Assembly: GCA_043228905.1 (NCBI GenBank)
Contig: JBHGNT010000016.1
Span: 3,038,001 to 3,102,000, forward strand
Direction: 5' to 3'
Source: Azolla caroliniana
Lineage: Eukaryota; Plantae; Polypodiophyta
DNA length: 64,000 nt
A model generated the notes under the pieces. That model had not been told where the DNA came from. It was given only the letters and a program-made list of their open reading frames with translations, and did no database searches. A program made the translations under genes and the position numbers. Shown piece by piece: positions 14,925 to 49,750 of this stretch (position 1 is the first letter of the stretch; each line of letters opens with the position of its first letter).

Positions 14925-17900
14925 CTTGCCCTCTTTGTATATGTATACATGTATATATATTTATATATTTATTTATCTAGTCACCGGACACCGGTTCGTC
15001 GGATGCTGTCGGTTACCGGTGCCTCGCCGGATGCAGTCGCTGGATTGCCGTCGGATGCCGGTGTCTCATTGGTGTCGGATGCCACCGGATCACCGGCTCC
15101 ATCGTCGGTCCGGTTTTGGTTGGCCAAAACCCTTTACGAGTAGTTAGCCCACCTCCACTCTTAGTTCAAGTTACCTTGAACTCTCTATGCTCCACACATA
15201 AACACAAAGATAATATCTTTTGCTCTACCTTATATATGATGAGAGCCGTATTTGTCGTGCTTATGTGGGATATCCCACAATTTTATCTTTTCCTTTCACA
15301 AACTTTATACCCTCATATCTTGACATTTAGTTGTCCGTTTCTCGTGTAATAAAGTGCATTCGAAACCTCCATCATTTTGTACTTAGATATTAAATTTATT
15401 TAAAATGTTATCTTCACAATTATTGTATTATGTGATTCATACTCGATTTTGTACGTTTTATGGGATTTTCACACTATTGCCGAAAATCTTCATGACATCC
15501 ACCCCCACCAAACCGCACGTCCTCCGGTACGTGCCAAGAAGAGAGAAAGTGAGATTTCGGCTATGGTGATCAATTAGATTCCTCTATGTCTTCATTTACA
15601 TCCGCCCTATTATGTTCATCGTCGAGGTGATCGAGGTCAGGATCCTTGTCTTGTCTTTTCTTGAAAATCTTTAGTCTTTTTCCCGCAATGGGTACGGCCA
15701 ACCTTGATCCGTCTAGTTCCACAAGGTGGTATGTGGCATTATTGTTGGCACTTGTCACCACATACGGCCCGAACCATCTTCTTGCGAACTTCCTTGTTGC
15801 ATTGTGTTGATTGTCAAGGGTGCTATCGTAAACCAAAACCCAATCCCCTTCTTCAATCTTCTTGGGACGAAGTCGATGCGTGTTGTCGAACCGAACTTTG
15901 TTCTTTACTCGGGTTGCCTCCATCATCTTTCGCGTTTTTTCTAAATCTTCAGGTCTTCTTTCAAGTTGCCTTATCCGCGCCGCTAATAACTCTTCTCGGC
16001 TCATCTCGTTCTCCCACGATATCGCTACCCATGAGGCGATCGTCCTTTCGATGGGCATAATCGGCTTTTGTCCATACATAAGCTCCGTCGGCATATACCC
16101 TGTCACTGAGCTATGTGTCATTCTATCGGCCCACAAGGCATAGGGTAATAATTGTGGCCAATTCCCGACTCGACCGTTGCATGCCCTTACGATGGCTTTA
16201 ACGATAGGTTCATGCCCTCGCTCAATCTTCCCATTCGCTTACGGATTGTAGGCAGTCGTGAGGGAGAGCTTCACGCCTAGTCTTTCAAAGAGCTCTGTCG
16301 CTTCATGCGCATCCAACTCCCCTCGGTCGGCCACTATCTTCCCTACACATCCATATCGGCAAACAACCTCTTCAAGCAGAAATTTGCAAACGGTTGAAGT
16401 CGTCTTATTTGTCAAGGCTCGTCCTTCCACTTGATTTGTCAAGTCTTCCCTTGCCAGCGCTAAGTACTTCATTTGTCCCACTCCCATTGGCATCGAGACC
16501 AGATCCACCATCCATTTGAAGTGTATGGTGAGTGGGTATGTCGGCTGTAACTCATCACGATGACGTATATTTGAATATATTTGGCAAGTTTTGCATGTGG
16601 ACACGAAATGGAGTACATCTTTGTACATGCTTGGCCACCAGTACTTCTCCTTCAACTTTTCGAACGTCGTCCATGTTCCTCTATGACCTGCCCAAGCACT
16701 CTCGTGGAATTCGGTCATCAACATCTCTTGCTCTTCTTCCTTTACCACCACTCAATGTGGTATTCTTGTCCTTCTTTTTGGATGTCGCCAAAGGAATCCT
16801 CCCTTCAAGAAGTATCGGTAAGCTTTCTTTCGGATTTGTAGGGCCTCCTCCTTTGTCAACGAAGCATCTGTCGTCAATGTTCTTAGGAATCTACCGATGA
16901 GTAATCACTCTCCTTCGTACTCGTTCTCGTTGAAGGCGTGGAGGGTTTGCGTGTCCTGGTCTTCCGCCGACAATCGAGCCATCTTGAAGAAGTCGAGGGC
17001 GACATCTTCATCTTCCGAAACCATGTTACTTCCATTTGAAAATCTTGCCCTCGACAGCATGTCAGCCATGGCGTTCTTCTTCCCTGCAATGTGATGGATC
17101 TCTGGGTTTAAAGACTTGATGTAGGCGATCCACCTTAGCATAGCAAGATCTAGGGTCACACATCCCGAGACCATTCCGAGAATTGGGAGACAATCTGTCT
17201 CTATTATCACTTCTGACCCGATCAGGTAATCTTTGTCCGTCTTCACTTCCGACACAATACCCCAAAGTTCCCACTTGACTTGGGCATATCTTTGTTGCCG
17301 TTCGCTGAGAATCTTTGCTCCGAACCGGACAACATATCGCACATTATCTTCACCTTCTTGATTGATGACCCACCCGATTCCGGTTGGGCTCGTATCTACG
17401 GTCACGTTGTCGTGCCTTTCGGCTCCGGATCGTTTGCGTGAGTCGGGTGGGAACCGCCGAGGTTTTGGACTAGGAGAAAGAAGAATATGAGATGAGGCTA
17501 GTAATGAATAGATTATTAGAAAGAGAGATAGAAATCTCGTGAATCCCACGAGTGTATTGTATTCGATTAATCAATATTTAGATAAGAATATGTATTTAGA
17601 TTGAAAGAAAGATATAAGAAACTTGTGAATCCCACAAGTATAGATTATATTATTTTCGTGAATCCCACGATTATATTAATCGGTTGGTGTTTTCGGAAAT
17701 ATATCCAATTTCCAAATATTTCACACACTATTACATTGTGCTCCCCATCCTTATGTAGTGATGAGTAAGTCTTAGTAATCCATGCTTTTTCTCTAACTAT
17801 AGACCCCATGCTTTTCCTATAGATAGACTATATGCTTTATCTAAAGTGATCATGCTTTTTTCTAACTTGTGCGTTTTTTATCATGTACGCTAGATGTGTA

Positions 17901-18000
17901 TGTGTAGCTTTTTCTTTTGTTATGCGTTTTTCTAATGTTTATCCTAGCGTGAATTTACCTTTCTATGTGGGACATCTATGCTTTAACACTAATGAAATGC

Positions 18001-18056
18001 TAGTGTAATGGTAAGACATTACATTATTAACAAGGAGGTGCAAGGTTCGAATCTTG
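18001..18056 (+). promoter_or_regulatory. tRNA-like A/B box cassette in the LTR of element B; second copy at 20803-20858
   Basis: TAGTGTAATGGTAAG-N19-GAGGTGCAAGGTTCGAATCTTG; consensus B box GGTTCGAATC. Confidence 0.7.
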
Positions 18057-18155
18057 CCCTATGCATGTTCCATTTATTTTGCTATTTTCTTCTATTTCTT
18101 CATTTTTTATTGAATCTAATACTATATACGTTTTTCACGTAGTGTACAAAATACA

Positions 18156-20171
18156 CTACGACACTCGCCCCCTCCAAACCCGCACATCCTCCGGTATGTG
18201 CCGAAGTTGTTGGTGTTTGTTAGTCTCCTCCGTCCGGTCTCTACCCGATTGGTTTCGTTGCCGGCTCGTAGTACCCTCGACTTCTCTTGTTATGTTGACT
18301 TTGTCTCTCCATTTGGAGCACATCCATTCTTTCCACCCGAACCATTGTCGACATCCGATCCACCATAGTCTTCGTTCGCTTTTTGCATGGCCCGCTTGGT
18401 CCTTGTCATCCGCGGTAGTATCTTTTCTTGCCCTCTTTCTTTTCTTCATCAATCTCGACTTCTTTTCGGATTTTCGGTTTAGTCGGATTAGCTTACTTCC
18501 GATTCGGTCTCGTTGGATCGTCTTTCGTTTAGTTCGGCTTCCTTTCCGATTTGTATTCGGTCGATCCGGACTCGGTTGATCGGTTTTTACCGATTCAGTG
18601 CTCTTTCGGGTCGGTTTCTTTTCTTTTCTTTTCGTTCGGATTTGCTTTCTTTTCTTCGTTTTCACCTGCCTTGTCCGGTTCGACTTTCGGCACTTCTTTC
18701 CGTTGTTCGCCACGTAGGTCCTCCGATATGTGCTCGTTGTTCGGTCCTCGTGTGGTTGTAATGCATGCTTCTTTTCTCGCCGTAGCGCGTGCTTCTTTAT
18801 TTGCCATAACACGTGTTTCTTTATTCGCCGTAGAGCGTGCTCTGTATTACGCGCTTCTCCCGTCGTAGACCCGACCTCCGCATTGTCGCACTTTCTTTTA
18901 GATTGGAATTTCGGATGGATCATTTTCCATCCGAACTGACTTCCGACTTTACCTTCCTCGCCGCCATCTCCCGTCTCTCCGGTCTCACGTTGGTTCTCGG
19001 ACACAACCGCCGAAGTCTCTAGATATTGTTGGCATGAATCCTCGGTATTACCTTCTTTCGTAGTTTCACCCTTAGCATTCTTCTCGGCTATCTCTTCATC
19101 GTATTCGTCGGCTTCGACATTCGTTTTCTCTCCGCCACCTTCCGTCTCTTCGGTCTCACGTTGCCTTTTGATCGCAACCGCCGGAGTCTCTGGAATCAGT
19201 GGTGGGGAAGTCTCGATATGGCAATCCGCCATTGATTCGTCCATAGCCACCTCCGATTCGATTTCGTCTTTTGTGGCTACCTCCTTAATCAAGTCCTCCT
19301 TGCTCTCTTTCACTGCATCAATTATGCTTACCCCTTTTTCACCCAATGTTTCGGACACTTGTATTCTGAAATCTTCTTCTACACTTGGGTTATCGGCCTT
19401 ATCCTTCATCGTTGTTCTTTCGCAAGACAAGAGGGTAGCTTGTTTTACACCCTCTTCTGTCGCACCATCATGTTGTATTTCGGCCTTCATATCGGCTCCA
19501 TCGTTTGTCTTCAATCGACCATCCTTCATCGGCCATGTCGTTGACAAGATTCTCATCTTCCTCTCATCATGTCTCCGGCATACCCTTTGGACTTCGGCCC
19601 AATTTTCGGTAAGACCATTCGTACCGTCATCGTCTTCGAGTTCGATCCCGATGTCCATCCTTTCTTTTCGATCGATCGATTTTACGAACATTAGGACTTT
19701 ATCCTCCCCCACCAATCGTTGTTCCCGCTCCGAGAGTTGAGCAAGACGATGCTCGAACTCTAGGAATGCTTGTGTTGCACTTCGGTGGGTCTTCTCCGAT
19801 GCCACCCATTCGTCGAATTTTCGCCGATCTTGTCCCTTTGATCTCTTGTAATCATATGCCTCTCGTAAAGCTTCTTCGAATGACCCCCATGTCGAGTTTT
19901 GTTGCCGTATCTTGTGGATTCTCTCTTGTAGCTCATCCGTGGCCACCCGATTGAAGGATGTCACTTGCAATCCTTCCGGTATCCCACATCGTATCATCTC
20001 CGCCTTGTAGTCACGTAGATAGCGTGACACATCGTTTCCGTTGAATTGTCCGTTTCGTTGTACGAGCCGCTTTACTGCCCCCGTGATCTCCGACATCACT
20101 CGTTGTTCTTGTAGCATCCGCTCGAACATCATCATCATCGTTTTGCTCATTGCCTCTTGTTGATTCTCCAT
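18156..20171 (-). CDS. Gag-derived 671 aa protein with acidic and basic low-complexity tail and a C-terminal Trp/Arg motif
   Basis: Open ORF filling the whole internal region from ATG 20171. N-terminus aligns with element A Gag (FNGNDVSRYLRDY vs FDGRNVTKFLDAY). No zinc knuckle or protease. Confidence 0.8.
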   Translation of the reverse strand: MENQQEAMSKTMMMMFERMLQEQRVMSEITGAVKRLVQRNGQFNGNDVSRYLRDYKAEMIRCGIPEGLQVTSFNRVATDELQERIHKIRQQNSTWGSFEEALREAYDYKRSKGQDRRKFDEWVASEKTHRSATQAFLEFEHRLAQLSEREQRLVGEDKVLMFVKSIDRKERMDIGIELEDDDGTNGLTENWAEVQRVCRRHDERKMRILSTTWPMKDGRLKTNDGADMKAEIQHDGATEEGVKQATLLSCERTTMKDKADNPSVEEDFRIQVSETLGEKGVSIIDAVKESKEDLIKEVATKDEIESEVAMDESMADCHIETSPPLIPETPAVAIKRQRETEETEGGGEKTNVEADEYDEEIAEKNAKGETTKEGNTEDSCQQYLETSAVVSENQRETGETGDGGEEGKVGSQFGWKMIHPKFQSKRKCDNAEVGSTTGEARNTEHALRRIKKHVLWQIKKHALRREKKHALQPHEDRTTSTYRRTYVANNGKKCRKSNRTRQVKTKKRKQIRTKRKEKKPTRKSTESVKTDQPSPDRPNTNRKGSRTKRKTIQRDRIGSKLIRLNRKSEKKSRLMKKRKRARKDTTADDKDQAGHAKSERRLWWIGCRQWFGWKEWMCSKWRDKVNITREVEGTTSRQRNQSGRDRTEETNKHQQLRHIPEDVRVWRGRVS

Positions 20172-22586
20172 CTCCTTGCCACCCGCCTTCACGTCGGGTT
20201 CACCAACTGTGTCGTGCCTTTCGGCTCCGGATCGTTTGCGTGAGTCGGGTGGGAACCGCCGAGGTTTTGGACTAGGAGAAAGAAGAATATGAGATGAGGC
20301 TAGTAATGAATAGATTATTAGAAAGAGAGATAGAAATCTCGTGAATCCCACGAGTGTATTGTATTCGATTAATCAATATTTAGATAAGAATATTTATTTA
20401 GATTGAAAGAAAGATATAAGAAACTTGTGAATCCCACAAGTATAGATTATATTATTTTCGTGAATCCCACGATTATATTAATCGGTTGGTGTTTTCGGAA
20501 ATATATCCAATTTCCAAATATTTCACACACTATTACATTGTGCTCCCCATCCTTATGTAGTGATGAGTAAGTCTTAGTAATCCATGCTTTTTCTCTAACT
20601 ATAGACCCCATGCTTTTCCTATAGATAGACTATATGCTTTATCTAAAGTGATCATGCTTTTTTCTAACTTGTGCGTTTTTTATCATGTACGCTAGATGTG
20701 TATGTGTAGCTTTTTCTTTTGTTATGCGTTTTTCTAATGTTTATCCTAGCGTGAATTTACCTTTCTATGTGGGACATCTATGCTTTAACACTAATGAAAT
20801 GCTAGTGTAATGGTAAGACATTACATTATTAACAAGGAGGTGCAAGGTTCGAATCTTGCCCTATGCATGTTCCATTTATTTTGCTATTTTCTTCTATTTC
20901 TTCATTTTTTATTGAATCTAATACTATATACGTTTTTCACGTAGTGTACAAAATACACTACGACAACGTAAATTGGTTTCCCTTTGGTATAGTTGGCCTT
21001 ACTTACTGCCGGAGCTTCAAGAAGCAGTTTCTTTAATCTTCGCATCGCATTTGTGTGCTCATCTCGCCATTCGAACTTCATTCTTTTCTTTAGTAGTCCA
21101 TATAACGGTTCGGCGACATGAGCGTAGTGAGGAATCCATATATGATAAAACACGCACGCTCCAAGGAACCTTCGAACCTCCGTTTGGTTTTCGCATTCTT
21201 CTTTCATGTCTTGGATTGCATTCACTTTGGATGGCGAGGGATTCCGGCCGTATGCTCCACACAAGTGACCTACCACCAAGATCTCCGGTTGCCCGAATGC
21301 GGATTTTTCTCCCGAAAATGTCAAATTCGCATCTTCGAGCCTTTGAAGCACCTTCTCGCAATCTTTCATATGATCCGCAACGAACTTTCTACAACCTTCC
21401 TTATCTTTTGATTCATCTTTCTCCTCATCCGAACATCCTTTTATCGGAATATCATCCAAGAATGGCATCGTGATGTCTGGGATGCAATCCTTCAAGACTT
21501 TATTCATGGCATTCACCATATGAGCCACCGAGTTCGTTGCGCCTTGGGGTAAGGTACACATCCGCACAAGTTCGATCGGAGTCCTCATGGTTGTAATGTC
21601 CCGACTGTCGATCGCCAATTGGAATTGGTCATATCCGGAGTACCGCAAACGCTTCGGCAAATTCGTCCATGCTCGGACCGATTCCGGCATTTCGAATTGT
21701 CACCTTGTTGACGGGTTGAAGATCTTGGATGAATTGCAATGATCCATTCTTCTTCTGCACCATGAACCACCTATTGGAATAAGGAGCATTCGACGGTTCT
21801 AGAATTCCGATACTCACCTTCTCCTTTAAGAGCTCGATCAACTTCGGAAGGTGTGCTCTCGGAACCGATATCGGTTTCAAATTCCAAGGCACATGAGGCA
21901 CCGTGAAGATCACCATCGGCTCTATAACCTTTGGGTCGGTGCATCCGATTTCTCATGGGAAGAATGCGAAAGCCTTCCCATGTCTCTCAAGCATATCACG
22001 AAACATTCGCTCCTCTTCAGGGAGAAGGAAATCCTCCTTTCCAACTCGTAGCTTCCCCTTCGTCTCTTTGGTGAAGACATGTCTATCTTCTTCGGATCTC
22101 TTAAGCTTGGATCGTTAGCGACTTCCTTCATCTTTTGCCAGCTATCTTCTGGTAGCGGAACCGCAACTGGCTTGATCTTCTTATCCACCGTTTTATATTT
22201 CATGTTGATGTCAGCTTCCTTCATCGAGATGCCACGACGGTATTCATCGATGATAGCGTACATGTTGACGGAGTTAACCGAAATCACGCATTGGTTGTGA
22301 AGATAGCTCAAGTCCACGACGTCCTCGATTTCACCGATGGTGTCGTTAAATGAGGTTTCTTCCATAATATGAGTCACGAACTCTCCTTCTTCTATTATGT
22401 TTTCTTCTTTCAGCATCTTCTCGAATTCTTGTATCCGGTGCTTGTGCTTCTTGTCGGGTAGTACTAGTTTACATGCGCCACTAGGTGTGACACATGTTGC
22501 TTCTCCTCGCAATCCACACACTCTTCTTTCTTGTGGGGTCTTGTGATTGCTCAGACTATTTGTACCCCATGCTTCAATAGTCCGCT

Positions 22587-24785
22587 CTAAAAATCCAAGG
22601 ATTCACCTCCGAGACTATCTCGATTCCTTTCATGATTGGCTCGCACCGTTAGGAATTGGACCAATCTTTGGTTGTCAAGACTCTTTATTCGTGTGAAGGC
22701 TGATCCATTATCGAACACTTTGGTCTCCATCCGAGATGATGTGATATAAGGTTGCCCTAGGATGACAGGATGCAACGTCGATTCTTGTACGAAGAAGTGT
22801 TGATCCATCTCCACATCCCCGATTGTGACTTTGATATTGGGACAAGCTCCGTACAAGTCCTCCGTAGACTTTGTTGCCGCGCGAATATTCCATCCGTGGT
22901 TTGTATTGATTGGCCATCTTCCTTTTTTGTAGAAGTTGGTTGACATGAGGTTGATCTCCGAGCCGTGGTCGATCAAGGCTACCACGGTCTCTTTCTTCTC
23001 CCCGATCTTCACCGGCGTCTCCGTTGTCGCTCGTGCCCAATGAGGTCGAGTATAGTGGATGTCCACCATATCTTCATCGACTTCGTCTCTTGCCATCGTT
23101 ATGGCATTCGTTTTTTCTTTTTGCTGCTTCTCTTCTTCCTCATCCGATTGTTGTCTCTTTCTCTTTACAAGGTCCACAATCGTGTCATGGAACTCCTTCT
23201 TCGTAATGCCAAGCAATTCCCTCAAGGACAAAGTTACGTGGCTATCAAGAACTCGTTCTTCGAGAATCTTCTTTAGGTCCGTCATCTGCTCTATGTCCGA
23301 CCTTAGCTTATAGGTAGGTATAGTCCTTGTCCTCCAAGCGGGGTCTTCGACACCAACCTTCACGGGCCGAACCGTTTCTTCAACTCGTATGCTCGGCTCC
23401 CCTTTTCGGCTTGATTCTCGTTCCTCCGTTTGTAAAGGTCGACTCGTCTCCGCATCGTCCTTCTTTTTCGCGTTCCTTGTTTCATATCTTTTTTATGGGC
23501 CTTGCTCTTCTATTCTCTTTCTCTTTTCTTCGACGAACACCTCGTGGTTGTCGCACATCACCTCTGCGAGTATGGTGTTGTCATCCACCGGATCCGACCA
23601 CCCGGTTATGCTTTGCACGCTTCGGTCCGCAAGCTCTACCTCGTTCGATGTGACTTTTCCCTTCTTCTCATATTCGAGAACGGAAGTCCAAAACTTTGCT
23701 CCCGCTCTAGCAGCTTCTGTCTTGTCTTTCCCGACTCTTATTCCGGCCGACGCAGCATAGTGCATCGCATCCACATGAGTCGCATCGGCATCCTCCATAG
23801 ATTTCTTCATTCCTCCTCTTCCGAAATTCACCCGTAGGGGTCTTCTAGTCTCGCTTGAGCAGATCATGTTGTCCTCTATGTATACGATATTTTGTCGAAT
23901 CGCCTCTCGAAGGCTCGCACAATCCCTTCTCATGTGGTCCATGCTATCGCACCACACGCATCTAAAGGGTTCTTTTCCTTTAGGGCCCCAACGATTCATG
24001 TTGGCTAGCGTGACCTTCTCGAACTTCTTCGCTAGCTCTTCAATGATGTCGTCATCAATCTTCTTTTCTTCCATGTTACTTTGACTTGGCGGCTCAGCTA
24101 CTTTCGGCGGTCTTGCTTTCTCCGTGGTAGTCGATCCCGTCAAGTCGATGTCATCAACCCATTGGCGACGCTTGTCGAGCCTATTGCATGCCCACTTCAC
24201 CGCGATCCAGTCCGCTACGAGCCCATTTGCTTGGGTATCATCTTCGAGAAGAGTCCCCAACTCCCGTCTATCCTTTGTGTCCACGGCCTTCAAGAAGTAC
24301 AAAGTCTTATCCTCTTCAAGCAACACTTGGTCCGTATTGGGGAGACGACTAAACATCTGGTCAAATTCGTCGTACACCCTCGAGATGCTCATCTTCTTAT
24401 TCTTCTTCTCTATCCACTTCATCAGGGCATGTCGAGTCATCCTCGTTGAGTCTTCAGTCACAAACTCCGCTAGTATCGTTTTCTCGAACTCGAACCATGT
24501 TGTCTTACCTTCTTGAAGCTCGATGACGCGTATTTGGATGTTGTTGGCGACAACTCTCTTGAAGCTTACGATTTGACGTGCCTCGGACACGTCCCTCTGA
24601 TTCATCTCCCTTCTATATGCATCAAGGAACTTCGTAACATTCCTTCCATCGAATTGGCCCTCGAGCTCTACGACACGATCGACAGCCTTCTCCACGCTCG
24701 CGTCGTTGTCCCGAGATCTCATCATTTGCTCGACGATTAACATCATCCTTTCGAGCTCTCCCGCTTGGTTGCTTGAGGACGCCAT
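22587..24785 (-). pseudogene. element A gag-protease (one frameshift near 23490)
   Basis: Zinc knuckle CVWCDSMDHMRRDC; aspartic protease motif ALIDHGSEINLM; ends ESLDF*. Confidence 0.9.
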
Positions 24786-25918
24786 CTCCAAGTATTAATC
24801 TTGACTTGATCCTTCCTACCGCCTCTTTCACGTCGGGTTCACCACTTAATTATGTCATGAAGATCCGTCACTACGCGCGGATCGTGAGGCAGAACCGCCG
24901 GGGTTCTGAACCGGAAGGATTCAAAGTCGGTACAAGCTTTGGCGCAAGCTTTGGCGAGAAAGTACTTAGGATAGATTGGGAAAGAGACAATTTGAGATTA
25001 AACGATTGAGAGAGATTGATTGAACTTTTATCTTTGGATTTAAGAAACAAGTTACACGATCAATTTGATAACGAATTTCTTCCTCTTAATTTCATAACAA
25101 AAAAAAACGCGTTTTTTTTCCTCCCCCTTCTTTTATAGATGCTCTCATGCATATGATGCATGTAAGGGTACAAGACATGCATAAAATGCATGCTTGCCAT
25201 TTGGCGCTTATGTATTACATGTGGTGCATGATAACCATGTCACTCATTTTAGCTCTCATGTATGAGAATTTACACATAAAAGTACAATGATAGAAATATA
25301 AATTCAACTAAATGGCATGGCTTAATGGTAAGCCAATTGACTCTTAACTTGGAGGTGCAAGGTTTGAATCTTTACTTGCCCTCCTTGTATATGTATATAT
25401 GTATATATATTTATATATTTATTTATCTAGTCACCGGACGCCGGTTCGTCGGATGCCGTCGCCGGTTGCCGCCAGATGTCGTCGGTTACTGGTGCCTCGC
25501 CGTCGCCGGATCACCGGCTCCATCGTCGGTCCGGTTTTGGTTGGCCAAAACCCTTTACGAGTAGCTAGCCCACCTCCACTCTTAGTTCAAGTTACCTTGA
25601 ACTCTCTATGCTCCACACATAAACACAAAGATAATATCTTTTGCTCTACCTTATATATGATGAGAGCCGTATTTGTCGTGCCTATGTGGGATATCTCACA
25701 ATTTTCTCTTTTCCTTTCACAAACTTTATACCCTCATATCTTGGCATTTAGTTGTCTGTTTCTCGTGTAATAAAGTGCATTCGAAACCTCCATCATTTTG
25801 TACTTAGATATTAAATTTATTTAAAATGTTATCTTCACAATTATTGTATTATGTGATTCATACTCGATTTTGTACGTTTTATGGGATTTTCACACTATTG
25901 CCGAAAATCTTCACGACA

Positions 25919-26468
25919 TCGTAATTCTCAGACTTCTCCTCTTGCACCTAATGCGATTAATGATAGCTTGTTCCATCCACCACAAAGGGACATATATGCT
26001 GGACCCAAGCTGACGAAAATAACGGAAACGAGGTGGCAAGGAAACTTGCAAGAATTGAAGGTGGGTATATTAATTGCTACACCTAGTGATGATAATGAGT
26101 TGGGACCTCAATTAGGGATTGGTAAGGTTTTAGATGTGGTGATGCATGAGAACCAAAGCCAAATCCAATCTATAAAGATGCATTGGTACAACACTAGAAG
26201 CAAAAATGCCTTTACTGGCAAGTATGCATTAGAGATGATGGAATGTCCACGGTCAAGGGGGAATAGAAAGAGGAAAAGAAATATTCGTAGCAGTTCATGC
26301 CTAGACATTGGTGACGTAGATATTATTGTTTACGACTTCACACTAACAAAACTTGGACATCTCAGGAAGTCTACAATAGATATCATCAAGGAGAAATTAC
26401 CTATTCTACAAGGGGTCTCAAGTCGAAGGCAAATAAGATCGTCCATAACATGGAATGTCAACATCTAG
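25919..26468 (+). pseudogene. C-terminal continuation of the Sola-like transposase
   Basis: Removing the LTR element restores CAA CAG TGT CGT AAT TCT (QQCRNS) in frame with ORF 14129-14398; continues GIGKVLDV...KMHWY. Confidence 0.7.
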
Positions 26469-32644: not shown

Positions 32645-32660
32645 ACGTTTTCTTAACATT

Positions 32661-36000: not shown

Positions 36001-36242
36001 AAAATTGAAAATGTTTTAAGTATAAGAGGTAACATTGTAATCCTTAGTGCCATCATCTATGAATTTAATGCTCATTAACATCCTTATATTCACAACTCAA
36101 GAAATGTAGACAATATTAATAAATAGTTTTGATAAATCCACAACTCCTAAAATGTAGACGATATTGATAAACTGTTAAACTTTGACGTGAACATTAATAT
36201 ATCAATTTGAACATATCACATATTAGTTATTAGGGTATCCAG

Positions 36243-37388: not shown

Positions 37389-37610
37389 CCGGATGAGGAG
37401 TACCCGGCTACGAAAGACCCGGTGAGAACCGGATGAGGAGTACCTGACTACGGAAGACCCAGTGAGAACCGGATGAGGAGTACCCGGCTACGAAAGACCC
37501 GGTGAGAACCGGATGAGGAGCACCCGGCTACGGAAGACCTGGTGAGAACCGGATGAGGAGTACCCGGCAAGAGCCGGATGGTGAAGGCCCGGTGAGAAGT
37601 GCTCACCGGA
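37389..37610. repeat. 40 bp tandem repeat (about 5 copies) in the Copia U3
   Basis: CCGGATGAGGAGTACCCGGCTACGRAAGACCCGGTGAGAA at 37389, 37429, 37469, 37509 and 37549. Confidence 0.92.
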
Positions 37611-39166: not shown

Positions 39167-42100
39167 TGTCGCGTTGTTACGCGCGTGCGTGGAGAAGGGC
39201 GGAACCACGGGGGTCTTGGACTAAGGAGAAGGGGAGAAGGAATAGGACTTCGGAATGGAGCTTAGCACAAGAAGAGAAAGAACGAACAAGAGGAAGATGG
39301 AGGCCAAATGCTCAACAAGATATATTAGAACCGAACACCGATTACAAAATGGCGGCCGCGTAGGCCGCACCAAACGGCTATGATAAACCCGAAACCCTAA
39401 TCCGACGAAGAAGAAAAGAAACCCTAACTAAGGAACCCTAAACGAAATGGTATACCTCACTCACACTCCAAAATAAGGCAACCCCCACAATGGTGCTCTT
39501 CCTCTCCCTTTATAGCACAAGGAGGGAAGACCGTTACATAAAGGTGCTACAAAATATCCCCTTTCAATCAATGGGGATATTTCCCTTGATTTTAGGGGAG
39601 GTGGGAAGGATGGGTCTTAACTCCCACCTCTACACGAACTACTATGTACCTATCTCTCTCTCTCACGTGGATGTGCGCGCAAAAGCACATCACCTCTACA
39701 CTTTACAAATCCTAAGGTGCATTTCTAGCACCATACTTATCACTATCGATAAATAGAAATACAACATGGTGATGTGCAACGTTGCACATCGCGGGTTTGC
39801 TTGCTTCGCTCGGTTTTCCGCCTATGGACGAAAATCTTCACGACATCCGCCCCCACCTAACCGCACATCCACCGGTATGTGCCAAAAGGGGAACAAAACG
39901 CGAGATTTTCGGCCAAGGCGGCCAACCGAGCCCTTGACAACCTCGTGGGCTTGCCCGGCTTAGTCTTCCACTTCGAGCAAGTCCACCCCGTCCACACGAA
40001 CCACCGTCGCCTTCCGGCCCACCATCTCCGCCGAATGGTCTCGAACCGTTGGCTCCATCCGATCCGCCACACTTGACGACGTTCGCCGAGTCGTGGCCTC
40101 CACCCGATCCGCCACGTCCACCGTGTTTCCTCGAACCACCGTCTACATCCGGACCGCCGTTTCCGATGCCCGCGCTTTCTTCCCCGATCGGTCCTCCCGA
40201 ACGCCGTTGCCGACCCTTTGTCCGCCTCGCATATCCTCCGGATCCGCCTTTTTCGCGCCGCGCACCACGTCGTGCCGACTCTTCTCGCTCCGCGCTTGCC
40301 TTCCGTAGGCTTTCCCCGTACGTCGGTGTCGTCCTCCGAATGCGTGCTCGTGCTTCGGTCCTTCGATGACCCCATCACGCATTTTTCGCCTTCCCTTTGC
40401 TTGCCGTGCTCTCTCGCCGTAGAGCATACCATCGTTCCCGCGCTCGTTGCTTGGCCCTCATGCGGCCGCATTGCACGTTTCGCATTCCGCTCCTCTTCGC
40501 GTACCCTTTCGGAAAGGTACCTTTCTTCCCCGATCTCCGTTTCGCTCGGAGGAACACCCTCTTGGCCCTCTTGGCCTGCTCGACCGCACACATCCTTCGT
40601 GATGTCGTGTTCGTTCCTTTGGGCGCATACATCTTCGTTCACCGCGACCTCCCGTATGCCTCTCTCGGTGCCTTCATCCGTTGTGGCCTTCGTCCCCTCG
40701 CCGCCACCGTCCGCCACTCTTGGTCTCACGTCGGCACTCGCGCCGATCGCCGGAGTCTCTATAGCCGGTGTGGAGGATCCCTCTCGGGTCTTATCTTCGT
40801 GGCCGCCGGTCTTAGCCTCTCCGTAGGCCACCTCTTCCCACCAATCTTCCCTAGCATCGTGCCGGGTCTCGTCGTCGCCGCCTTCCTCCTCGTATTCGCC
40901 TCTCGAAGGCGTGATCCGACCGTCATCTTCGGTCGCTCGATGTGGCTCCTTCGTAGGCATGCTTGTGTCTTGGCCCTCCATCGGCCGTATTGCATGCATC
41001 TCGTCTCGCTCTTCCGCCGTAGACCCGACCTCCGTGTCGGTCTTCTCCTCCTTTGTCGCCGTAGCCCGTTCCGACACGGGCTCGCCGTCTTGGACCCACC
41101 CGTCCACCATCTCGTACCGGATATCCGTTCCGGTAACCTCGTACGCTCCGGCCTCCGACTCCTCGCCGCCACCCGCCGTCTCTCCGGTCTTATGTTGATC
41201 CGCAACCGCCGTAGTCTCTAGAGTGGGTATGGAGGGCCTCGTTTGTTTCCGTTTTTCCCCCGAACCATGGTCGTCGTGCCCGGTTAGCCTCCATCTCGCG
41301 CTTACCGGCTCCCATCGTAAACGTAACCGTAACCGTAACCGTAACCGGCCAATCGGTCTTGCCGGCTTCCTTCGGTTTGGGCCCGGTTCGCCGGCCCTTA
41401 CTCTCTTCTTCTTCCGTGCCGTATTCCGGTAGGGTCGGTTCCCGACTCTCTCCTCGTTTCCGCTCCGGTCCTCTCCGTCGGACCCACCGTATACGCCCAT
41501 TCCGGGCCCCGCATACTCGTCTTCGTATGCGCTCTCTCCGGGCCTCACCTCCTCACGGTCACCGCCCATCTCTCCGGTCTCACGTTGGCATTCGAGCACA
41601 ACCGCCGAAGTCTCCGGCCCCGGTGTCAAGGGGTCTTGCCTCCGTCCGCTCCAATCTTCCTTCTCGTTTCCATTGCACGCCTTGCCGCCGTCACCTCCCG
41701 TCGCACTAAGCCTCATGCCGGCCCTCGGGCCGGCCATTGGAGCCTCTAGGATTGGTGTGGGTAAGGACCCGGCACCGCCGCTTGTTGTCTCCGTAGCCGC
41801 TTTCGTTCGGACGTCGTCCGCGGCTCCCCCATCTCCGATTCCGTAAGCCTCTAGTATGCTTGCCACCACCTCTTCTTCGCCGTTCTCCGCGTCATTTTGT
41901 TTGCCCGCCTTGCCGCCACCACCGCCCGTCGTTCTAGGTCTCGTGCCGGCACTCGGGCCGACCGCCGAAGCCTCTAGGGCCGGTGTGTGGAAGGTCGCGG
42001 CACCACCGCTCGCCTCCTCTCCGCTCGATGTTTTGGGCCGCCGTGCCCCGAATCTTCCGCCCACTTTCGAAGTGGCGCTCTCCGCTTTGTAGTCACCGGC

Positions 42101-44840
42101 CTCATCCTTGGCCGTCCATTCGCCGCAAGACGAGAGGGTCGCTCGCTCCGCACCCTCTCCCATGTCGTCGTCGTTTCGGTTGCCCGCCTTGCCGCCGCCA
42201 CCGTCCGTCACTCTAGGCCTCTCGCCGGCTCTCGGGCCGGGTGCCGGAGTCTCTAGGACCGGTGTGTGGAAGGTCGCGACACCACCACTCCTCTCGTCCG
42301 TAGCCACCTCCATTCGGACATCGTCGTCCGTGGCTACCCCGTCTTCGGTTTCGCAAGCATCGAGTATGCTTGCCGCCGCCTCTTCTTCGCCGGTCTCGTC
42401 CTCATCTCGGTTGTCCGCCTTGCCGCCGCCACCGTCCGTAGCTCTAGGTCTCGTGCCGGCACTCGGGCCGACCGCCGAAGCCTCTAGGGCCGGTGTGTGG
42501 AAGGTCGCGACACCATCGCTCGTTTCGTCTTCCTCCTCCATTTCGCAAGCCTCGAGTATGCTCGCGAAATCCTCGTAGAACGTTTCGGGCAACCGCGTCC
42601 CGAAACTTCCGCCCACTCTCGAAGTGGCGTCCATCGCTCCGTAGATATCGGCCTCGTCCATGGCCGTTCTTTTTCCCCGAGATGAGACGGTCGCTTGCTC
42701 CGCACCTTCTCTCGTGTCGACGCCGTGGTCGCCCGCCTTGCCACCGCCACCGCCTTTCACCATAGGTCTTACGCGGGCACTCGGGCCGGCCGCCGTGATC
42801 TCTAGGAATGACGCGTGTAAGGTCGCGGGACCGCCGCTCGTCGATGTATAGTCCGTGGCCACCTCCGCTCGGACGTCGTTGTCCGTGGCTACCCCGCCTC
42901 CGTATATGCAAGCATCGGTTATGCTTGCCGCCGCCTCTTCCGCGGTCTTCTTACCGTTGTCTCGGTTGCCCACCTTGCCGCCGCCACCGTTCTTTTCCCT
43001 CGGTCTCACGCGGGCGCTCGGGCCGGCCGCCGGGGTCTCTTGAACCGGCGCGTGGAAGGTTGCGGTACCGCCGCTTGTCTCCTCCGTACTCGATGATTCG
43101 GGCCACCATGTCCCGAATCCGCCATGTCCGCTCGAATCGGCGATTGCCGCCTCACCGTCCCCGACCTCGTCCTCGGTCGTTCTTTCCCCCCATGTCGAGA
43201 GGGCGGCTCGCTCCGCACCCTCTCCCGTGGTACCGATGTACCATTCTCTTTCGGCCTCCGCATGGGCCCCGTCCTCCATGTGTGAGGAAGCTCCTTCCTC
43301 CGCGTCCTCCGATCCGCTCGGGCCCGACCCCGCAATAAGCCATTCTTCGGCTTCGATTTTCGCCATTACGAGCCCGCACGCCTCCCGTATTAGCGCTTGT
43401 AGGTCGAGCCCCTCCAAACCGGTTCACGATGAGCTCTCGTCCGGCGGCATGGCGTAGTCGGTCGTCGCTCTCTCTTCTCCCCCGCTCGCGGGCCGTGTTG
43501 TGGCCGACCGCCTCGCCTCATGTTGCCGACACACCCATTCCACTTCGGGCCACTCCTCGGTGAGACCATGCGCCCCATAATCGTCTTGAAGCTCGAACAT
43601 GATGTCCATCCTCTCCTCATGATGGACCGTCTCCAAAAATAGGAGGACTTTGTCCGCCCCCACCGTTCTTCGTTCCCACTCCGAGAGTTGAGAGAAACGA
43701 CGCTCGAACTCTCGGAATGCCTCTATTGCGCTCCGATGGCGCCTCGCCGACGCCATCCACCGATCGAACTCTCGCCGACCTCTTACCTCCGATTCCGCGC
43801 ACCCGTATGCCTCCATTAGAGCCCCTTCAAAGGACTCCCACGATTCGTGAGCTTCTTGGAGCTCCTTGACCTCCTCGTACTTTGATGCGGCCGCCGCTCG
43901 ACGAAAGAACTCTAGCCTCGTCGCTTCGTCCACGCCCATCCCCGTCATTTCCGCATCGTAGGCTCTCAAAAATTTTGGGACCTCCTTCCCATCGAACCGG
44001 CCGACTAGACGGACCACCCTTTCGACCGCTTGTTGAGCCGCCTCTCGCCTCGCCCTCTTCCGTCCGGCGTCCATCACGATCTTTGTCATCATCTCCTCGA
44101 AGTCGAAGCCTTCTTCCATCTCTTTCTCCCTTGCCGCCCTTCACGTCGGGTTCACCAAAGATGTCGCGTTGTTACGCGCGTGCGTGGAGAAGGGCGGAAC
44201 CACGGGGGTCTTGGACTAAGGAGAAGGGGAGAAGGAATAGGACTTCGGAATGGAGCTTAGCACAAGAAGAGAAAGAACGAACAAGAGGAAGATGGAGGCC
44301 AAATGCTCAACAAGATATATTAGAACCGAACACCGATTACAAAATGGCGGCCGCGTAGGCCGCACCAAACGGCTATGATAAACCCGAAACCCTAATCCGA
44401 CGAAGAAGAAAAGAAACCCTAACTAAGGAACCCTAAACGAAATGGTATACCTCACTCACACTCCAAAATAAGGCAACCCCCACAATGGTGCTCTTCCTCT
44501 CCCTTTATAGCACAAGGAGGGAAGACCGTTACATAAAGGTGCTACAAAATATCCCCTTTCAATCAATGGGGATATTTCCCTTGATTTTAGGGGAGGTGGG
44601 AAGGATGGGTCTTAACTCCCACCTCTACACGAACTACTATGTACCTATCTCTCTCTCTCACGTGGATGTGCGCGCAAAAGCACATCACCTCTACACTTTA
44701 CAAATCCTAAGGTGCATTTCTAGCACCATACTTATCACTATCGATAAATAGAAATACAACATGGTGATGTGCAACGTTGCACATCGCGGGTTTGCTTGCT
44801 TCGCTCGGTTTTCCGCCTATGGACGAAAATCTTCACGACA
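39167..44840 (-). mobile_element. pol-less LTR element C (Trp-primed clade), very young
   Basis: 679 bp LTRs at 39167-39845 and 44162-44840, apparently identical. TSD ACGT on both sides; removal restores Copia DVRH|VPEV. Trp PBS at 44140-44157. Confidence 0.95.
39857..44119 (-). CDS. Gag-derived frame of about 1420 codons (one in-frame TGA at 43426-43424) with internal peptide repeats and a C-terminal Trp/Arg motif
   Basis: The 231 aa and 1186 aa ORFs are in the same frame. Gag-like FDGKEVPKFLRAY. At least 6 ATFHTPxLExxAxGP...GGGGK repeats. Near the end: RRRWWAGRRRWFVWTGWTCSKWK. Confidence 0.7.
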
Positions 44841-46985
44841 ACGTTCCGGAGGTTCGTCTGAACCTGATATCAACCGATCGGCTAGATGATGAAGGCTACA
44901 GGATAGCATCCGGAACAATGTTATGAAGTTCAGCAAAGGGAGCCTGATTGTGGCTCGGGCCCGGAAGGTAAACACATTGTACCTGATGAATGCCCAGTTA
45001 TGCCCGGAAGAAGTGAACGTGGCATCCGACATTGCCGGTGAGTTGTGGCACAAGAGGCTGTGTCACATGAGCGAGAAGGGGATGAAGAGGCTTGCAGACG
45101 ACAACCTCATTCCAGTGAAGAACGTGCACTTGGAGAAGTGCACTGATTGTCTGGCCGGTAAACAAAACCGGACCTCCTTCCGATCGAGGCCACCGATGAG
45201 ACGTAATGCACCACTGGAGTTGGTGCATACTGATGTATGTCAAGTGGACACGAAGTCACATGCCGGATCGTAGTACTTCGTGATGTTCATAGATGACCAC
45301 AACCAAAAGCTGTGGGCCACACCGTTGAAGACGAAGGATCAGGTGTTATCTGTCTTCAAAGAGCTCCACGCGAGAGTGGAAAGAGAACCTAACCGGAAGC
45401 TGAAGGCGGTTCGAGTAGATAACGGAGGTGAATACCAAGGGCAGTTCGAGGAGTATTGTCGCTCAAAAGGAATCCGGCTCGAATTTACCATGCCGAAGAC
45501 GCCGGAACTAAACGGGTTGGCCGAGAGGATGAACCGGACCATAATGGAGAGGGTCTGGAGTATGCTAGCGCGTGCAAAACTACCCAAGAAGTTTTGGGCC
45601 GAGGCACTGTCGACGGCGACATATGTGATAAACAGATCACCCTCAGTGCCCTTGGATGGAGAGACACCGCAGAAGGTGTGGACCGGTAAGGAAGTTTTCT
45701 ACCGGCATCTGAAGGTGTTCGGGTGTCTCGCGTACGTGCATGTTGCTAAGGACCAGAGAGGAAAGTTGGATCCAAAGACCCGGCCATGCATATTCCTCGG
45801 TTACGGCGACGATGAGTTCGGCTACCGAGTGTGGGACTTGGTCGACAAGAAGGTATTCCGGAGTCAAGATATTATCCTCATGGAGGACAAGACACTCGCC
45901 GACTGGGAGTCGGAGAAGAAGATAATGAACTCCGACTCGACCGGTAAGGATCGATTCTACGATGAGCAGACCCAACCGGCAAGAGACCGGTTAGCACTCG
46001 AGGAACTAGCCGGTTACGGTGAGGATACCGAACTGGCAGAAGAAGAAGTAGAGGAAGCTGAAACCGGAACCGGCCAAGACCCTTAATCGGATTCGGATGA
46101 AGAGAAAATGGAGGAGCCGGTTACCGAAGCCCAAAGACGGAGATATCCTCTCAGAGAGAGAAGGGCCCCCCAGAGATTTCCGGATGCAGAGCATGTGCTG
46201 CTAACCGATGAGGGGGAGCCAGAGAGGTTCGAAGAAGCGAAGGATGACACCCATAGCCGCAAATGGTTAAGTTCCATGCAGGATGAGATGGATTCCCTGC
46301 ATGAGAACCATACGTACGAATTGGTGGAGTTGCCGAAAGGAAAGCGGGCACTCCGAAACAAGTGGGTGTACAAGTTGAAACCGGGAGATGCTGGCAAACC
46401 CCCGAGATACAAAGCCAGGATCGTGGTGAAGGGGTTCCAGCAGAAGAAGGGCGTGGACTTCGACGAGATATTTGCCCCAGAAGTAAAGATGACCTCCATC
46501 CAGACGGTGCTGAGTATTGCGGCAAGCATGGACCTCGAGGTAGAGCAGTTGGACATCAAGACGGCATTCCTTCACAGTGACCTCGAAGAGGAGATCTACA
46601 TGCAGCAACCGGAAGGATTCGTGGAGAAAGGGAAGGAGCACCTGGTATGCCGGTTGAAGAAGAGTCTGTACGGACTGAAGCAAGCTCCCCGACAATGGTA
46701 TCGGAAGTTCGACTCCTTCATGACCGATCAAGGGTACCACAAGACGCAAGCCGATCACTGCGTGTTTGTGAAGAAGTTCAAAGGAGGCGACTTCTTGATA
46801 CTCCTTCTGTACGTGGATGACATGTTGATTGTCAGACGGGACCAAGTCAGAATACAGATGCTGAAGAAGGCTCTCAACCGAACTTTCGCAATGAAAGACT
46901 TGGGCCCAGCAAGACAGATGTTGGGGATGCATATCATCCGAAACCGGCCAACGAAGCAATTGTGGTTGTCACAAGAGAAGTACGT

Positions 46986-47644
46986 TGTCGTGAGGAAAAC
47001 CGTCCCCGTGCGCAAAGTGTGTGTGAACCGGCCTTGCACGTGGGCACGCCCCTGTTGTATAGTAGATAGGTGGGCACAAAGTCAAACCCTAGGTAGCAAT
47101 ATTCCATAGGGAGAATCGAGGAGTGTCTCTGTCCGAAAGGACAGAGAATTAATGTGATGTATACGGGTGAAAACGGTCTCCCTCCTTGAGCTATAAAAGA
47201 GAGGGAGACGGGGGAGAGAGAGGTATCGCGCGCGAGAGGGGACGAAGTGCTGTCGGACTGGGACCGAGCACTTCTCTGTCATTCTCCGTAGCTTTCTTGT
47301 GCGCAGGTTCTTGAGAGGTTGATTCTGCTCCGTGGAACGCCCGTGTGCTTCCGGCAAAGTCTTCATCTCGCACCCCTGCGCGCGTGGGTGGTCAGGCGTC
47401 GATATCCATCTAGCAGGCCTGATCGGTTGTAACCGTTCGCGTCGTCTGCATACTTATTTTATATACATACACTGGTGTTCTTATACTCTATTCCCCGTTC
47501 AACTCGTGTCTCTTGTGTCATTGGACCGCGTTCCCGTGCGCTTCTTTGTCTATACGTGTGTGAGCGTGTCTCTCTCTCTGTCCCTTCTCTCACCTATTCC
47601 TCGGTCCAAGACCTCAGTGGTCCCGCCTTGTTCTCCACGCACGC
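46986..47644 (+). mobile_element. LTR of element D (same clade), interrupted near its U5 end
   Basis: Starts TGTCGTGAGG after ACGT. TATA (CTATAAAAG) at about 47191. U5 motif GTCCAAGACC...CCGCC...CTCCACGCACGC. Confidence 0.8.
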
Positions 47645-48220
47645 TGTCGAGATATTACGCAAGTGCGTGTGGAATCGAGGCGGGACCGCGGGGGTCTCGA
47701 ACCAAAGAGCAAGCGAGGGAGGAGAAAGAGAGAGAGAACCGGCTACGGAGGACCGGGGATACACAGGGACACGGCCCTTCAGCACGGAGAACGCGAACAG
47801 ACACCGACACAGACAGATGCGAATGACTTAATATGTATATTAAGAAAATGGCTAACACTACTACAACCCTCGATGGGGCACAGGTTGGTTACAACCGAAC
47901 AGGCCGGCGAACAGATGCCGACGCCTGTTCACTTCGACGCTCAAAGGGGCTGCCGGAAGCACTCGGGCGTTCCTCGAAACAGCGCGAGCCTCCTCGGAAC
48001 CCTGCACAGAAAAGCTATGGAGCTCAGGAAGGAAGGAAACAGAGAGAGAGAAGCGTCCAGAAACGGTCCGACAGCACTTCGTCCTCTCCCCGCGAGATCC
48101 CTGCAACAGCTCTTTCCCGCTCCTTATATAGGCCGACGAGCAGGCCGTCGTGTCAGCTTTATTCCCTGTCCCTTTTGGACAGGGATCCGCTCCGTTTTTC
48201 ACGCATCCGCGTAGTTACGC
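47645..48220 (-). mobile_element. LTR of element E, inserted in the LTR of D and interrupted by F
   Basis: Starts TGTCGAGATATTACGC...GGCGGGACCGCGGGGGTCTCGAACC after ACGC. Inverted similarity to D (GACGAAGTGCTGTCGGAC). Confidence 0.75.
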
Positions 48221-49650
48221 TATCGCGAAGATTCGCGCGTGCGTGTGCTACTCGAGCGACCACCGGGGTCTTGGACTGGGGAGGACGTTCGCAGAATTAT
48301 CGATGCTAGATGACGATCAATGTAAGATTAGATGAAATTGGTTTACTTGAGAAGGAGAAAAATTGTACACTTGAGAAGTAGAAAAACATGAAGAAGATAA
48401 AGACAAATATAATTATATTGATGATAGTGGTGTTGGTGATATCACATATTGAGCCCCCCTTACACAAGCCCAACTAGAGGCTTTTATAGGTCTTTCCATG
48501 CTCGTGACATGCACAAAACCATGGGCTAAAACCATGGTTTTGTGCACACGGTTTTGCTTATGTCATGCACAAACCATGGGTTTAAAACCATGGTTTTGTG
48601 CACATGGTTTTCTATGGTTGTTTCGTCTATAATTTGTATATGAAAAGGAAATACATATAATCTACACTATATGATAGTTGTCCTAGTGGTAAGGCAATTA
48701 TCTTGTATGTTAGAGGTGCAAGGTTCAATCCTTGCTTGCACCCCTCTGTATGAACTCAAGTGCCAGTAGGCTAGGTTTATTTGCTAAGTGCATGTGCAAT
48801 GTTGCACATCCTTGGTTTATTCATCTCACTCGGTTTCACACCGTAGCCGAAAATCGTCACGACATCCACCCCCACCAAACCCGCACATCCTCCGGTATGT
48901 GCCGAGAAAGGTGAAGAGGTAAGATCTTTGGCAACGGCGATCAACCGAGTTCCTCTGCACGCTCGTCGTCCTCGTCTTCCACTTCGAGTATGCGCAATCT
49001 TTCCAACCGAACCACCGTAGCCACCCGATCCACCATATCCGGCGCTCACACCTTCTTCCCCGATCGGTTGTAGTAGATCTACCGAACGATGTCGTCGATA
49101 CGACCGCTCTTCCTTCGTCCACCGCGCGTGTCCTTCGATTGGACTCCTGGCCACTCCTCACGCTCACCGTCTTCAACTGGGTATTGTAGATCGTTCGTGT
49201 CGATCTCCGATTAGGCCGGGTTTGCCCTTGTCCGGATCGGTCTCCACCGATCGCTTCTTGGCTTGGTTGGCCTTCGTCTGCATTCACATTTCCCCGAGTC
49301 GGGCTCGACCGATTGATTCTGGCTGGGTCGGCACCCTTTTGGATCGGAATCGTCCGATCGATTTTCGCCGAATCAGGTTTCGGCCGGGTCGGCCCCGGTC
49401 GATCGGCTCCCATGTGGATCTTCCTTCGTTCGGGTCGGAATCCCGGCCGGATCGTCTTCCGGTTCAACCGGTTCTCGACTCTTCCTTCCTTCCCGCATGC
49501 AACCTCTCCATCGAACTCAACCGCAGCTTCATCCTTGGCCTCCACGTCGGCCATATCCTTCCCTCCGTGTATGCTCGCCTCGGGCCATATTGTCTCCTCT
49601 TCGCCACCTCCTTTATCTTCGGTCTTATGTCGACACACGGTCTCGACTGC
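48221..49650 (-). mobile_element. element F: 3' LTR (48221-48864) and 3' internal region running into the gap
   Basis: LTR ends TCACGACA, followed by the PPT complement TCCACCCCC. ORF 49638-48826 contains RRIWWIGWLRWFGWKDCAYSKWK. tRNA-like box at 48679-48734. Preceded by ACGC. Confidence 0.85.
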
Positions 49651-49750
49651 NNNNNNNNNNNNNNNNNNNNNNNNNNNNNNNNNNNNNNNNNNNNNNNNNN
49701 NNNNNNNNNNNNNNNNNNNNNNNNNNNNNNNNNNNNNNNNNNNNNNNNNN
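49651..49750. other. assembly gap (100 N)
   Basis: Run of N. Confidence 1.

Follow-up and report, generated by a model that had tools for sequence, protein, structure and literature searches.

Young pol-less LTR elements of Azolla caroliniana encode Gag-derived capsid parts and a conserved Trp/Arg C-terminal motif

The genome of Azolla caroliniana contains hundreds of young LTR elements without pol, whose Gag-derived protein ends in a Trp/Arg motif that is evidently under protein-level selection. The window analyzed here is a stretch of 64,000 nt (contig JBHGNT010000016.1, positions 3,038,001 to 3,102,000), and the evidence base is this one genome. Elements B, C, and F of the window share an architecture in which a two-lobed capsid is followed by a long spacer, a basic stretch, and then the motif. 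Because the motif is kept while capsid parts are swapped or lost, we tentatively read the single protein, at somewhat less than an even chance, as a putative cis-acting adaptor that would anchor its own RNA at helper assembly sites behind interchangeable capsid parts. Plant gag-only retrotransposons are common and are usually taken as deletion remnants.

Element B is a pol-less LTR element of 3558 bp (17408..20965(-)), inserted between RT and RNase H of its host, element A, and flanked by the target site duplication (TSD) ACGT (17404-17407 and 20966-20969). Element A (14399..25920(-)) is a decayed autonomous Phygy-type element coding for Gag with a zinc knuckle, protease, RT, RNase H, and integrase, with a tRNA-Trp primer site at 24827-24844. 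The LTRs of B (5' LTR, 20210..20965(-); 3' LTR, 17408-18163(-)) differ by 1 mismatch in 756 nt. The primer-binding site (20188..20205(-)) is complementary to the 3' end of the host tRNA-Trp, and a polypurine tract (18164..18176(-)) adjoins the 3' LTR. The ORF (18156..20171(-)) has the 671 aa claimed for it in an earlier reading made from the letters alone (the sequence-only reading). A long helix precedes the capsid N-lobe (aa 38-108; 19848..20060(-)), which is followed by the C-lobe (aa 111-208; 19548..19841(-)), an acidic spacer of low hydrophobicity (about aa 209-440; 18852..19547(-)), a Lys/Arg-rich stretch with a net charge of about +48 (about aa 441-590; 18402..18851(-)), and the Trp/Arg motif of 24 codons (18306..18377(-)).

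Element C (5674 bp; 39167..44840(-)) is inserted in a Ty1/copia element with the TSD ACGT. Its LTRs of 679 nt each (39167-39845 and 44162-44840) are identical, which bears out the near-identity of LTRs described for B and C, and its tRNA-Trp primer site lies at 44140-44157. The roughly 1420 codons attributed to C correspond to 1421 codon positions, but in the window copy codon 231 is followed by a TGA, which the sequence-only reading did not mention and which gives a capsid part of 231 aa (43424..44119(-)) and 1188 open codons in the Gag frame for the spacer, basic stretch, and motif (39857..43423(-)). Among 18 other C copies, picked mostly for long frames, 16 are open for 1197-1489 aa. The motif of C (39965..40036(-)) is accompanied by partial extra copies at 40055-40075 and 40100-40120. 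Element F, described as partial, is so in the window, where the 3' part of its ORF (48826..49650(-)), the motif (48976..49047(-)), and the 3' LTR (48221..48864(-), outer end approximate) are present; the cause is a 100-N assembly gap (49651-49750), and the element itself is complete on contig C123 (99.9% match, 662 aa). B measures 3.56 kb, F about 3.5 kb, and the related E less than 4 kb; C measures 5.67 kb.

B, C, and F have about 55 to more than 130 close copies each, many of them intact. TSDs were found in 13/14 resolved copies of B, 16/17 of C, 16/19 of F, and 14/16 of E, with median LTR identities of 99.8-99.9%, supporting the recent, non-autonomous movement proposed earlier. All 64 matching TSDs in B, C, C2, E, F, and family H have the form NCGN. 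From the 4-bp NCGN TSD and the tRNA-Trp primer site, B, C, and F are probably Phygy-type Ty3/gypsy elements. Expression is only hinted at: C-family contigs are present in one spliced, RNA-type run (strand not given), cover of B is almost nil in run X3 and none in X4, and no RNA run was listed as containing B. The motif region of P0013 is 100% identical in this genome, and all evidence may come from one species.

Each of B, C, and F has a single Gag ORF without pol enzymes. None of them gave any Pfam match, and the zinc knuckle, present in A and H, is lost, in line with the sequence-only reading. The interiors of the helpers A, H, K, and M are filled by gag-pol. The capsid fold expected of the Gag region was recovered, the N-lobe matching the Arc N-lobe with Z 9.5-9.8 (rmsd 1.6-1.8) and the C-lobe matching PEG10 with Z 8.0 and Ty1 p22 with Z 7.1 (rmsd 3.0, 86 aligned), at fold-match identities of 7-14%; Foldseek alone gave no match with E <0.1. 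This region had been regarded as the N-terminal Gag region of A, to which it is homologous but only about 31% identical.

The two lobes of B have different relatives. Its N-lobe is 72% identical to H Gag and 28-38% to C/D/F, and its C-lobe 56-71% identical to C/D/F and 34-40% to autonomous Gags, and the resemblance changes from H to F near aa 100, in the linker between the lobes. The C-lobe supports monophyly of the satellites (99), and the N-lobe rejects it (p-AU 0.023; the test set excluded the frameshifted row N_L106). The last 50 nt of the B 5' LTR together with the spacer are 98% identical to H, and the last 60 nt at the polypurine tract are 88% identical to it. These similarities indicate that B captured the N-lobe of H through recombination at the lobe linker; the termini of H were captured along with the N-lobe in both B and E. 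Between the N-lobes of E and H, 37 of 78 changes fall at third positions. Element A, earlier taken as the partner of B, was rejected as its helper since B matches H at the termini and N-lobe; the helper is likely family H. No helper with an N-lobe of the C/D/F type was found among the 28 autonomous starts sampled or the 5 database matches listed. The N-lobes of C, D, and F are at most 36/88 identical to those 28 starts, which means that lobe identity cannot serve as a general rule of docking.

The motif stands behind several capsid arrangements. C, F, and P0018 have the full satellite capsid, and B the N-lobe of H joined to a satellite C-lobe. E has the N-lobe only (85 full matches, 64 with frames of at least 500 aa), and 15 of its 18 resolved copies reach the motif. 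J has the C-lobe only; 7 of 13 copies examined start in this way, and 2 are open for 475 aa. In J', the motif follows an A-related capsid. Family D is older and has no motif (150/150 scored matches).

The tail frame is open to an extent not expected by chance: it has 0 stops, the remaining sense frames have 16-29, and the lowest count among shuffles was 12-21. Shared stop codons number 4 versus 21.9 expected, a depletion inflated by the choice of copies, some of which were picked for long frames. Shared indels are in frame in 7/8 cases within the ORF, 7/37 in the LTRs, and 3/8 after the motif; the reading frame is held as far as the motif and is free beyond it. ETxAV/RETGE repeats of the spacer are common to B, C, E, and F in frame, and the spacer sequence is nearly unconstrained (tail omega about 0.7-0.9). 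The purifying selection suggested earlier is supported for the motif in its Trp frame and hardly for the tail. The motif versions of B, C, and F all read as quoted before, and the seven synonymous codon pairs between B and F are all real. Between these two, 13/21 changes in the motif are at third positions (p ~0.009), and 7 synonymous codons were observed versus 2.9 expected (p 0.009); C and L036 differ by 4/4 synonymous codons (p 0.007). Over the motif block, 17/29 changes are at third positions, compared with about one third in the tail blocks. The synonymous test was not significant for B-C (p 0.38) and F-C (p 0.52), and B and L013 differ by 5 changed codons with 0 synonymous; motif limits were drawn by eye.

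Full-length motifs contain 5-10 Trp per 24 aa. The motif is the top 18-mer of each protein on an interface scale (score 6-15), and its hydrophobic moment is low. Pfam, solved-structure, and Atlas searches returned nothing for it, blanks that are no sign of novelty. An origin as an integrase remnant was rejected: the likeness of a shifted frame to the H integrase tail was seen by eye, and a profile built from 8 integrase ends reached no more than 1.6 bits on the frames of the satellites, versus 5.1 in 240 shuffled controls. DNA similarity is confined to the 50-160 nt that directly precede the LTR. The motif may have a very old integrase origin.

In plants, long 3'-UTRs trigger decay. The frame could accordingly be kept for the RNA, since an ORF that runs to the 3' LTR would escape such decay; the Trp motif would arise incidentally from a conserved G-rich cis element close to the polypurine tract. 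Such a role would suit a tail with these omega values and its stops purged, the ORFs of B, C, E, and F, which mostly end about 90 nt or less from the LTR edge in any frame, and the distance of 102-267 nt between motif and LTR. We consider it unlikely, as the third-position and synonymous excess is limited to the Trp frame, RNA folding of the motif gave no signal (z +2.0 to -1.2), motif DNA is absent from the autonomous helpers, J has gained further TGG codons, and D, whose ORF is followed by about 1.8-2.4 kb of non-coding sequence, spread nevertheless.

The motif might instead be a candidate Argonaute hook of a protein that counters silencing by small RNAs, both of the element and of its helper. 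GW occurs in a low-complexity tail, at a first site in 10/15 motif rows and a second in 6/15 (two rows out of register), an extra FGW lies upstream in B and E, and D ends in a GW-containing stretch. Known Argonaute hooks are rich in Gly, Ser, and Asp, whereas the context here is rich in Arg and aromatic residues. Moreover, neither GW site is fixed, the first is lost in the most expanded B type, the cores of C, C2, and P0113 lack both, and the retained capsid lobes are left unexplained. This role is improbable, even though viral suppressors are reported to use WG/GW motifs (PMC2904775).

The spacing of five Trp, fixed across B, C, E, F, and J, would suit a site that specifically binds RT or integrase of the helper, or nuclear-pore proteins, and the basic runs resemble nuclear import signals, the function this explanation gives to the basic stretch. 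However, a single motif would need to fit helpers that differ by 25-40% at their integrase ends, and copies with a duplicated or truncated motif are tolerated (P0003 and P0014 stop within it), making such a site quite improbable. A further explanation, which we find very unlikely, makes the proteins inhibitors of the p22 type that would poison the particles of the helper and so limit or out-compete it. The one-lobe variants E and J, the p22-like C-lobe, the bulky tails, which could disturb a lattice, and the block of particle assembly by p22 (PMC8458377) would fit it. Against it, the expanding elements themselves require helper enzymes, the motif is left unexplained, and H is as young as they are and no less abundant (150 or more near-identical copies, which also speaks against the helper restriction suggested earlier).

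Under the adaptor reading, RT and integrase would be supplied in trans by autonomous families (H for B and E), and the basic stretch would replace the lost zinc knuckle and bind RNA. The Trp-dense motif may sit at a membrane interface or in an RNA-protein granule, and the capsid lobe may enter the helper lattice as a minority subunit. The benefit would be a packaging advantage rather than a strict need. Nucleation of Ty1 assembly sites at the ER (PMC3945221) is in favor; the spread of D without the motif, the low hydrophobic moment, the motifs cut short in P0003 and P0014, and the mobility of Mini-Ty1 elements without any protein of their own (PMC4974528) count against it. We hold as doubtful the wider proposal that a portable spacer-basic-Trp module is the real gene of a long-lived satellite clade, with lobes as docking adaptors from active helpers and a Trp anchor redirecting helper assembly onto satellite RNA. 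The variants that occur naturally differ in which parts they have (both lobes, only one or the other, swapped lobes, with or without motif) and single out the 24-residue motif as the apparently selected piece, so that short peptides and tagged proteins would allow a direct test of what a Gag-only protein does. If the adaptor reading is true, non-autonomous LTR elements can encode their own hijacking machinery and switch helpers by recombination at a capsid domain border.

The published literature searched, with subscription journals largely outside it, holds no description of the spacer-basic-Trp module. New here are the lobe capture from H by B, the N-lobe-only E, the C-lobe-only J, and the A-related capsid of J'. 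TR-GAG elements (Chaparro et al. 2015, PMC4350172; Kirov et al. 2021, PMC8704663) resemble B, C, and F in LTRs, primer site, polypurine tract, one Gag ORF without pol, and recent transposition with a trans helper. Coffee TR-GAG1 keeps the zinc knuckle, which this clade has lost, and Arabidopsis TR-GAG is highly similar to its autonomous partner, whereas B, C, and F form an old independent clade. This clade further differs by an extension of 250-1200 aa ending in the apparently selected Trp motif and by swapped or lost capsid lobes; B, F, and E fall within the TR-GAG length limit of <4 kb and C lies beyond it. The Phygy clade (Neumann et al. 2019, PMC6317226) has the same 4-bp NCGN TSD and tRNA-Trp primer site; its available description, from Physcomitrella, lists no extra ORFs and does not mention non-autonomous Gag-tail satellites. 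Ty1 p22/p18 (PMC8458377, PMC4599808) is a partial Gag of one capsid domain with a related fold, like the C-lobe-only J, but p22 arises from an internal transcript of the autonomous element that it inhibits, whereas each satellite is an LTR element in its own right, has its own TSD or primer site, and encodes a long tail. The two-lobed Arc/Ty3 capsid (PMC6525542) has the same fold as the satellites at low identity, and the motif has no solved relative. Sugar beet has non-autonomous LTR elements of a modular kind (PMC13570524), whose LTRs and interiors are likewise reshuffled by template switching and many of whose families have no traceable partner; those described carry patchy domain remnants, in contrast to the conserved novel coding module here. 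If the proposed Trp anchor is real, a satellite clade bearing it would be a eukaryotic counterpart of capsid-hijacking phage satellites.

Four features are constant across the motif-bearing satellite families of the 523-Mb plant genome: at least one capsid lobe, a spacer that is free to vary, a basic stretch, and the 24-codon motif, a Trp-dense end that stays in frame. These satellite findings rest on one genome and are known from sequence and models. An AlphaFold2 model of residues 1-208 of element B (pLDDT 87) contains a long first helix and two helical lobes, with a low-confidence linker at 108-112. Foldseek ranked Arc, HIV CA, copia, PNMA2 and Ty3 capsids at the top for this region, all with E >0.1. 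In a second structural comparison, residues 38-108 matched the N-lobe of Arc (Z 9.5-9.8, rmsd 1.6-1.8 over 64-68 residues) and residues ~111-208 matched PEG10 (Z 8.0) and Ty1 p22 (Z 7.1), values that are modest for helical folds, with matches that agree among themselves. The Atlas neighbours of the satellite capsid are Retrotrans_gag. The capsid is followed by an acidic spacer containing shared repeats, then by the basic stretch and the motif; B, C and F lack the zinc knuckle.

In the window (G000:C16:3038001-3102000), B (17408-20965, minus strand) lies between the RT and RNase H regions of A (14399-25920, minus), an autonomous Ty3/gypsy element that has decayed. Satellite C (39167-44840, minus) is inserted within a copia element, and the partial satellite F (~48221-49650, minus) is interrupted by an assembly gap. 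The description of B, C and F in the sequence-only reading stands overall, but the window copy of C has a TGA after codon 231, and a complete F (662 aa, 99.9% match) lies on contig C123. C and a K-type LTR adjoining F interrupt the Ty1/copia element (38151-47109 and 47645-48220); the remainder of the nest around F, lost in the gap, is visible on C123. Primer sites of all three satellites are complementary to host tRNA-Trp, and among 74 resolved copies (B, C, C2, E, F, H), the 64 matching target-site duplications are all NCGN. PMC6317226 gives these two traits for the Phygy clade, and B, C and F resemble that clade in carrying them. Matches to the tRNA-Trp 3' end cluster, 16-19 per cluster, at G000:C8:17.80-17.82 Mb and C16:4.99-5.11 Mb; three loci examined outside these clusters are tRNA-Trp genes. 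The window also contains host genes for a transferase-family protein (6558-8246), ribosomal protein L27A (57187-57921) and a PPR protein (60797-62383), a 46/94-bp tandem array (3635-4688), and a 203-codon frame just outside the 5' LTR of A (25857-26468) that had no match in a Pfam search. A 3.3-kb duplication (97-98%) occupies 32661-36004 and 50260-53718, the latter copy overlapping a spliced minus-strand transcript with joints at 51106-55660 (sequencing run X3).

Copy counts, based on 150 scored candidates per search, are lower bounds, tandem and haplotype copies included: for B, at least 133 matches with an identity of 97% or higher, 85 of which lie in frames 700 aa or longer; and, judged by eye, at least ~70 close and ~80 older matches for C, and at least ~55 for F besides at least ~90 that belong to a sister type. 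The LTR pairs have a median identity of 99.8-99.9%. B copies are arranged head to tail in groups of 4-6 at G000:C18:6696204-6710468, C16:15407422-15416696 and C17:11941658-11950204, and shared LTRs were seen at L012.

Selection was assessed from variants common to at least 2 copies against a spectrum-aware expectation, in 17, 18 and 22 copies, some chosen for long frames. For Gag, omega was 0.41-0.55; for the spacer it was 0.69-0.86 (singly not significant) and for the basic stretch 0.76-2.2. Stop codons numbered 4 against 21.9 expected, in copies partly chosen for long frames. Shared indels were in frame in 7/8 cases within the ORF, 7/37 in the LTRs and 3/8 downstream of the motif, and past the motif the ORF ends in all three frames among subfamilies. 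From omega, stops, indels and ORF ends, we infer that the frame matters as far as the motif and the spacer sequence barely. Purifying selection on the motif, proposed earlier, is borne out between B and F (3, 5 and 13 differing sites by codon position; 7 synonymous codons versus 2.9 expected, p 0.009) and between C and genome copy L036 (4/4 synonymous, p 0.007), but the B-C and F-C pairs gave no significant synonymous excess and B versus copy L013 showed the opposite trend to B versus F. No codon-position bias like that of the motif was found in the tail blocks of the B-F alignment. The motif tested negative both as an integrase remnant and as an RNA structure.

Additional lineages were obtained from database proteins and further genome searches. 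In quick trees of the lobes, with one frameshifted row left out, 15 satellite rows fell on one side of a C-lobe branch and 11 autonomous rows on the other (support 99); in the N-lobe tree, B and satellite family E clustered with H, an autonomous family, and monophyly of the satellites was rejected (p-AU 0.023). B changes from H-like to F-like near residue 100, the lobe linker. B and H share 98% identity at the U5 end and primer region, and over the first 324 nt the identity of copy L015 with H is 95%. The termini of C and D resemble K/N/O-type helpers, and those of F are mixed; no helper carrying a C/D/F-type N-lobe was found among the autonomous starts sampled. Family H (L081-L086) is a very young autonomous family with at least 150 matches at 98% or more, whose gag-protease and pol frames differ and overlap by ~120 nt.

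Family E, similar in age to B and with its own target-site duplications, has only an H-type N-lobe, followed by tail and motif. Family J begins at the C-lobe, 41 nt downstream of the point where the primer site starts, and 10 of the 24 residues of its motif are Trp; in older J' copies, an A-related capsid (~50% identical to A) is fused to the same tail, and J' copy L182 keeps capsid and tail in one frame broken by stops only. Family D has the satellite capsid and a shorter ORF without the motif. This sister satellite family (L117-L136; at least 150 matches, LTRs mostly 91-98% alike) has a recurrent 479-aa ORF ending in a different aromatic/basic stretch with GW, then ~2 kb of repeat-rich non-coding DNA. 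Search matches point to more motif-bearing families, among them the P0014/P0015 type and one with recurrent 774-787 aa frames. None of the motif-clade matches found was assignable to another species, and the motif region of database protein P0013 is present in the host genome at 100%.

No RNA data set listing the B sequence was found. Splicing at joints and very deep cover of ribosomal-protein sequences show that run X3 behaves as RNA; its contigs span the C interior at ~98% identity and depth 5-22, and B is almost without cover. Since neighbouring copia pieces have a depth similar to that of C and the contigs carry no strand information, this is only a weak hint of C expression.

Mini-Ty1 elements move with helper proteins in trans alone (PMC4974528), so an aid in competition is the best reading of the satellite ORF. 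The reading we tentatively favour is that its protein is a cis-acting adaptor: the basic stretch would hold the element's own RNA, the Trp motif would sit at a membrane interface or in a granule, and a capsid lobe would join the helper lattice. Ty1 assembly sites nucleate at the ER (PMC3945221), which is an analogy for the satellites, not evidence. In Ty3, N-lobes form capsomers and C-lobes link them (PMC6525542), which makes it unlikely that a protein with a single lobe could form a shell by itself. Behind the adaptor reading comes frame keeping at the RNA level, which seems unlikely, followed by the motif as an Argonaute hook, which we consider improbable. Binding of the motif to an enzyme or the nuclear pore is more doubtful still, and inhibition of the p22 kind is the least probable.

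Module shuffling among non-autonomous elements is already known (PMC13570524), and the literature searched yielded no description of a C-terminal Trp module that is under selection and recurs behind swapped or halved capsids. As TR-GAG elements are defined (PMC4350172, PMC8704663), the satellites work like them, but C exceeds the size limit.
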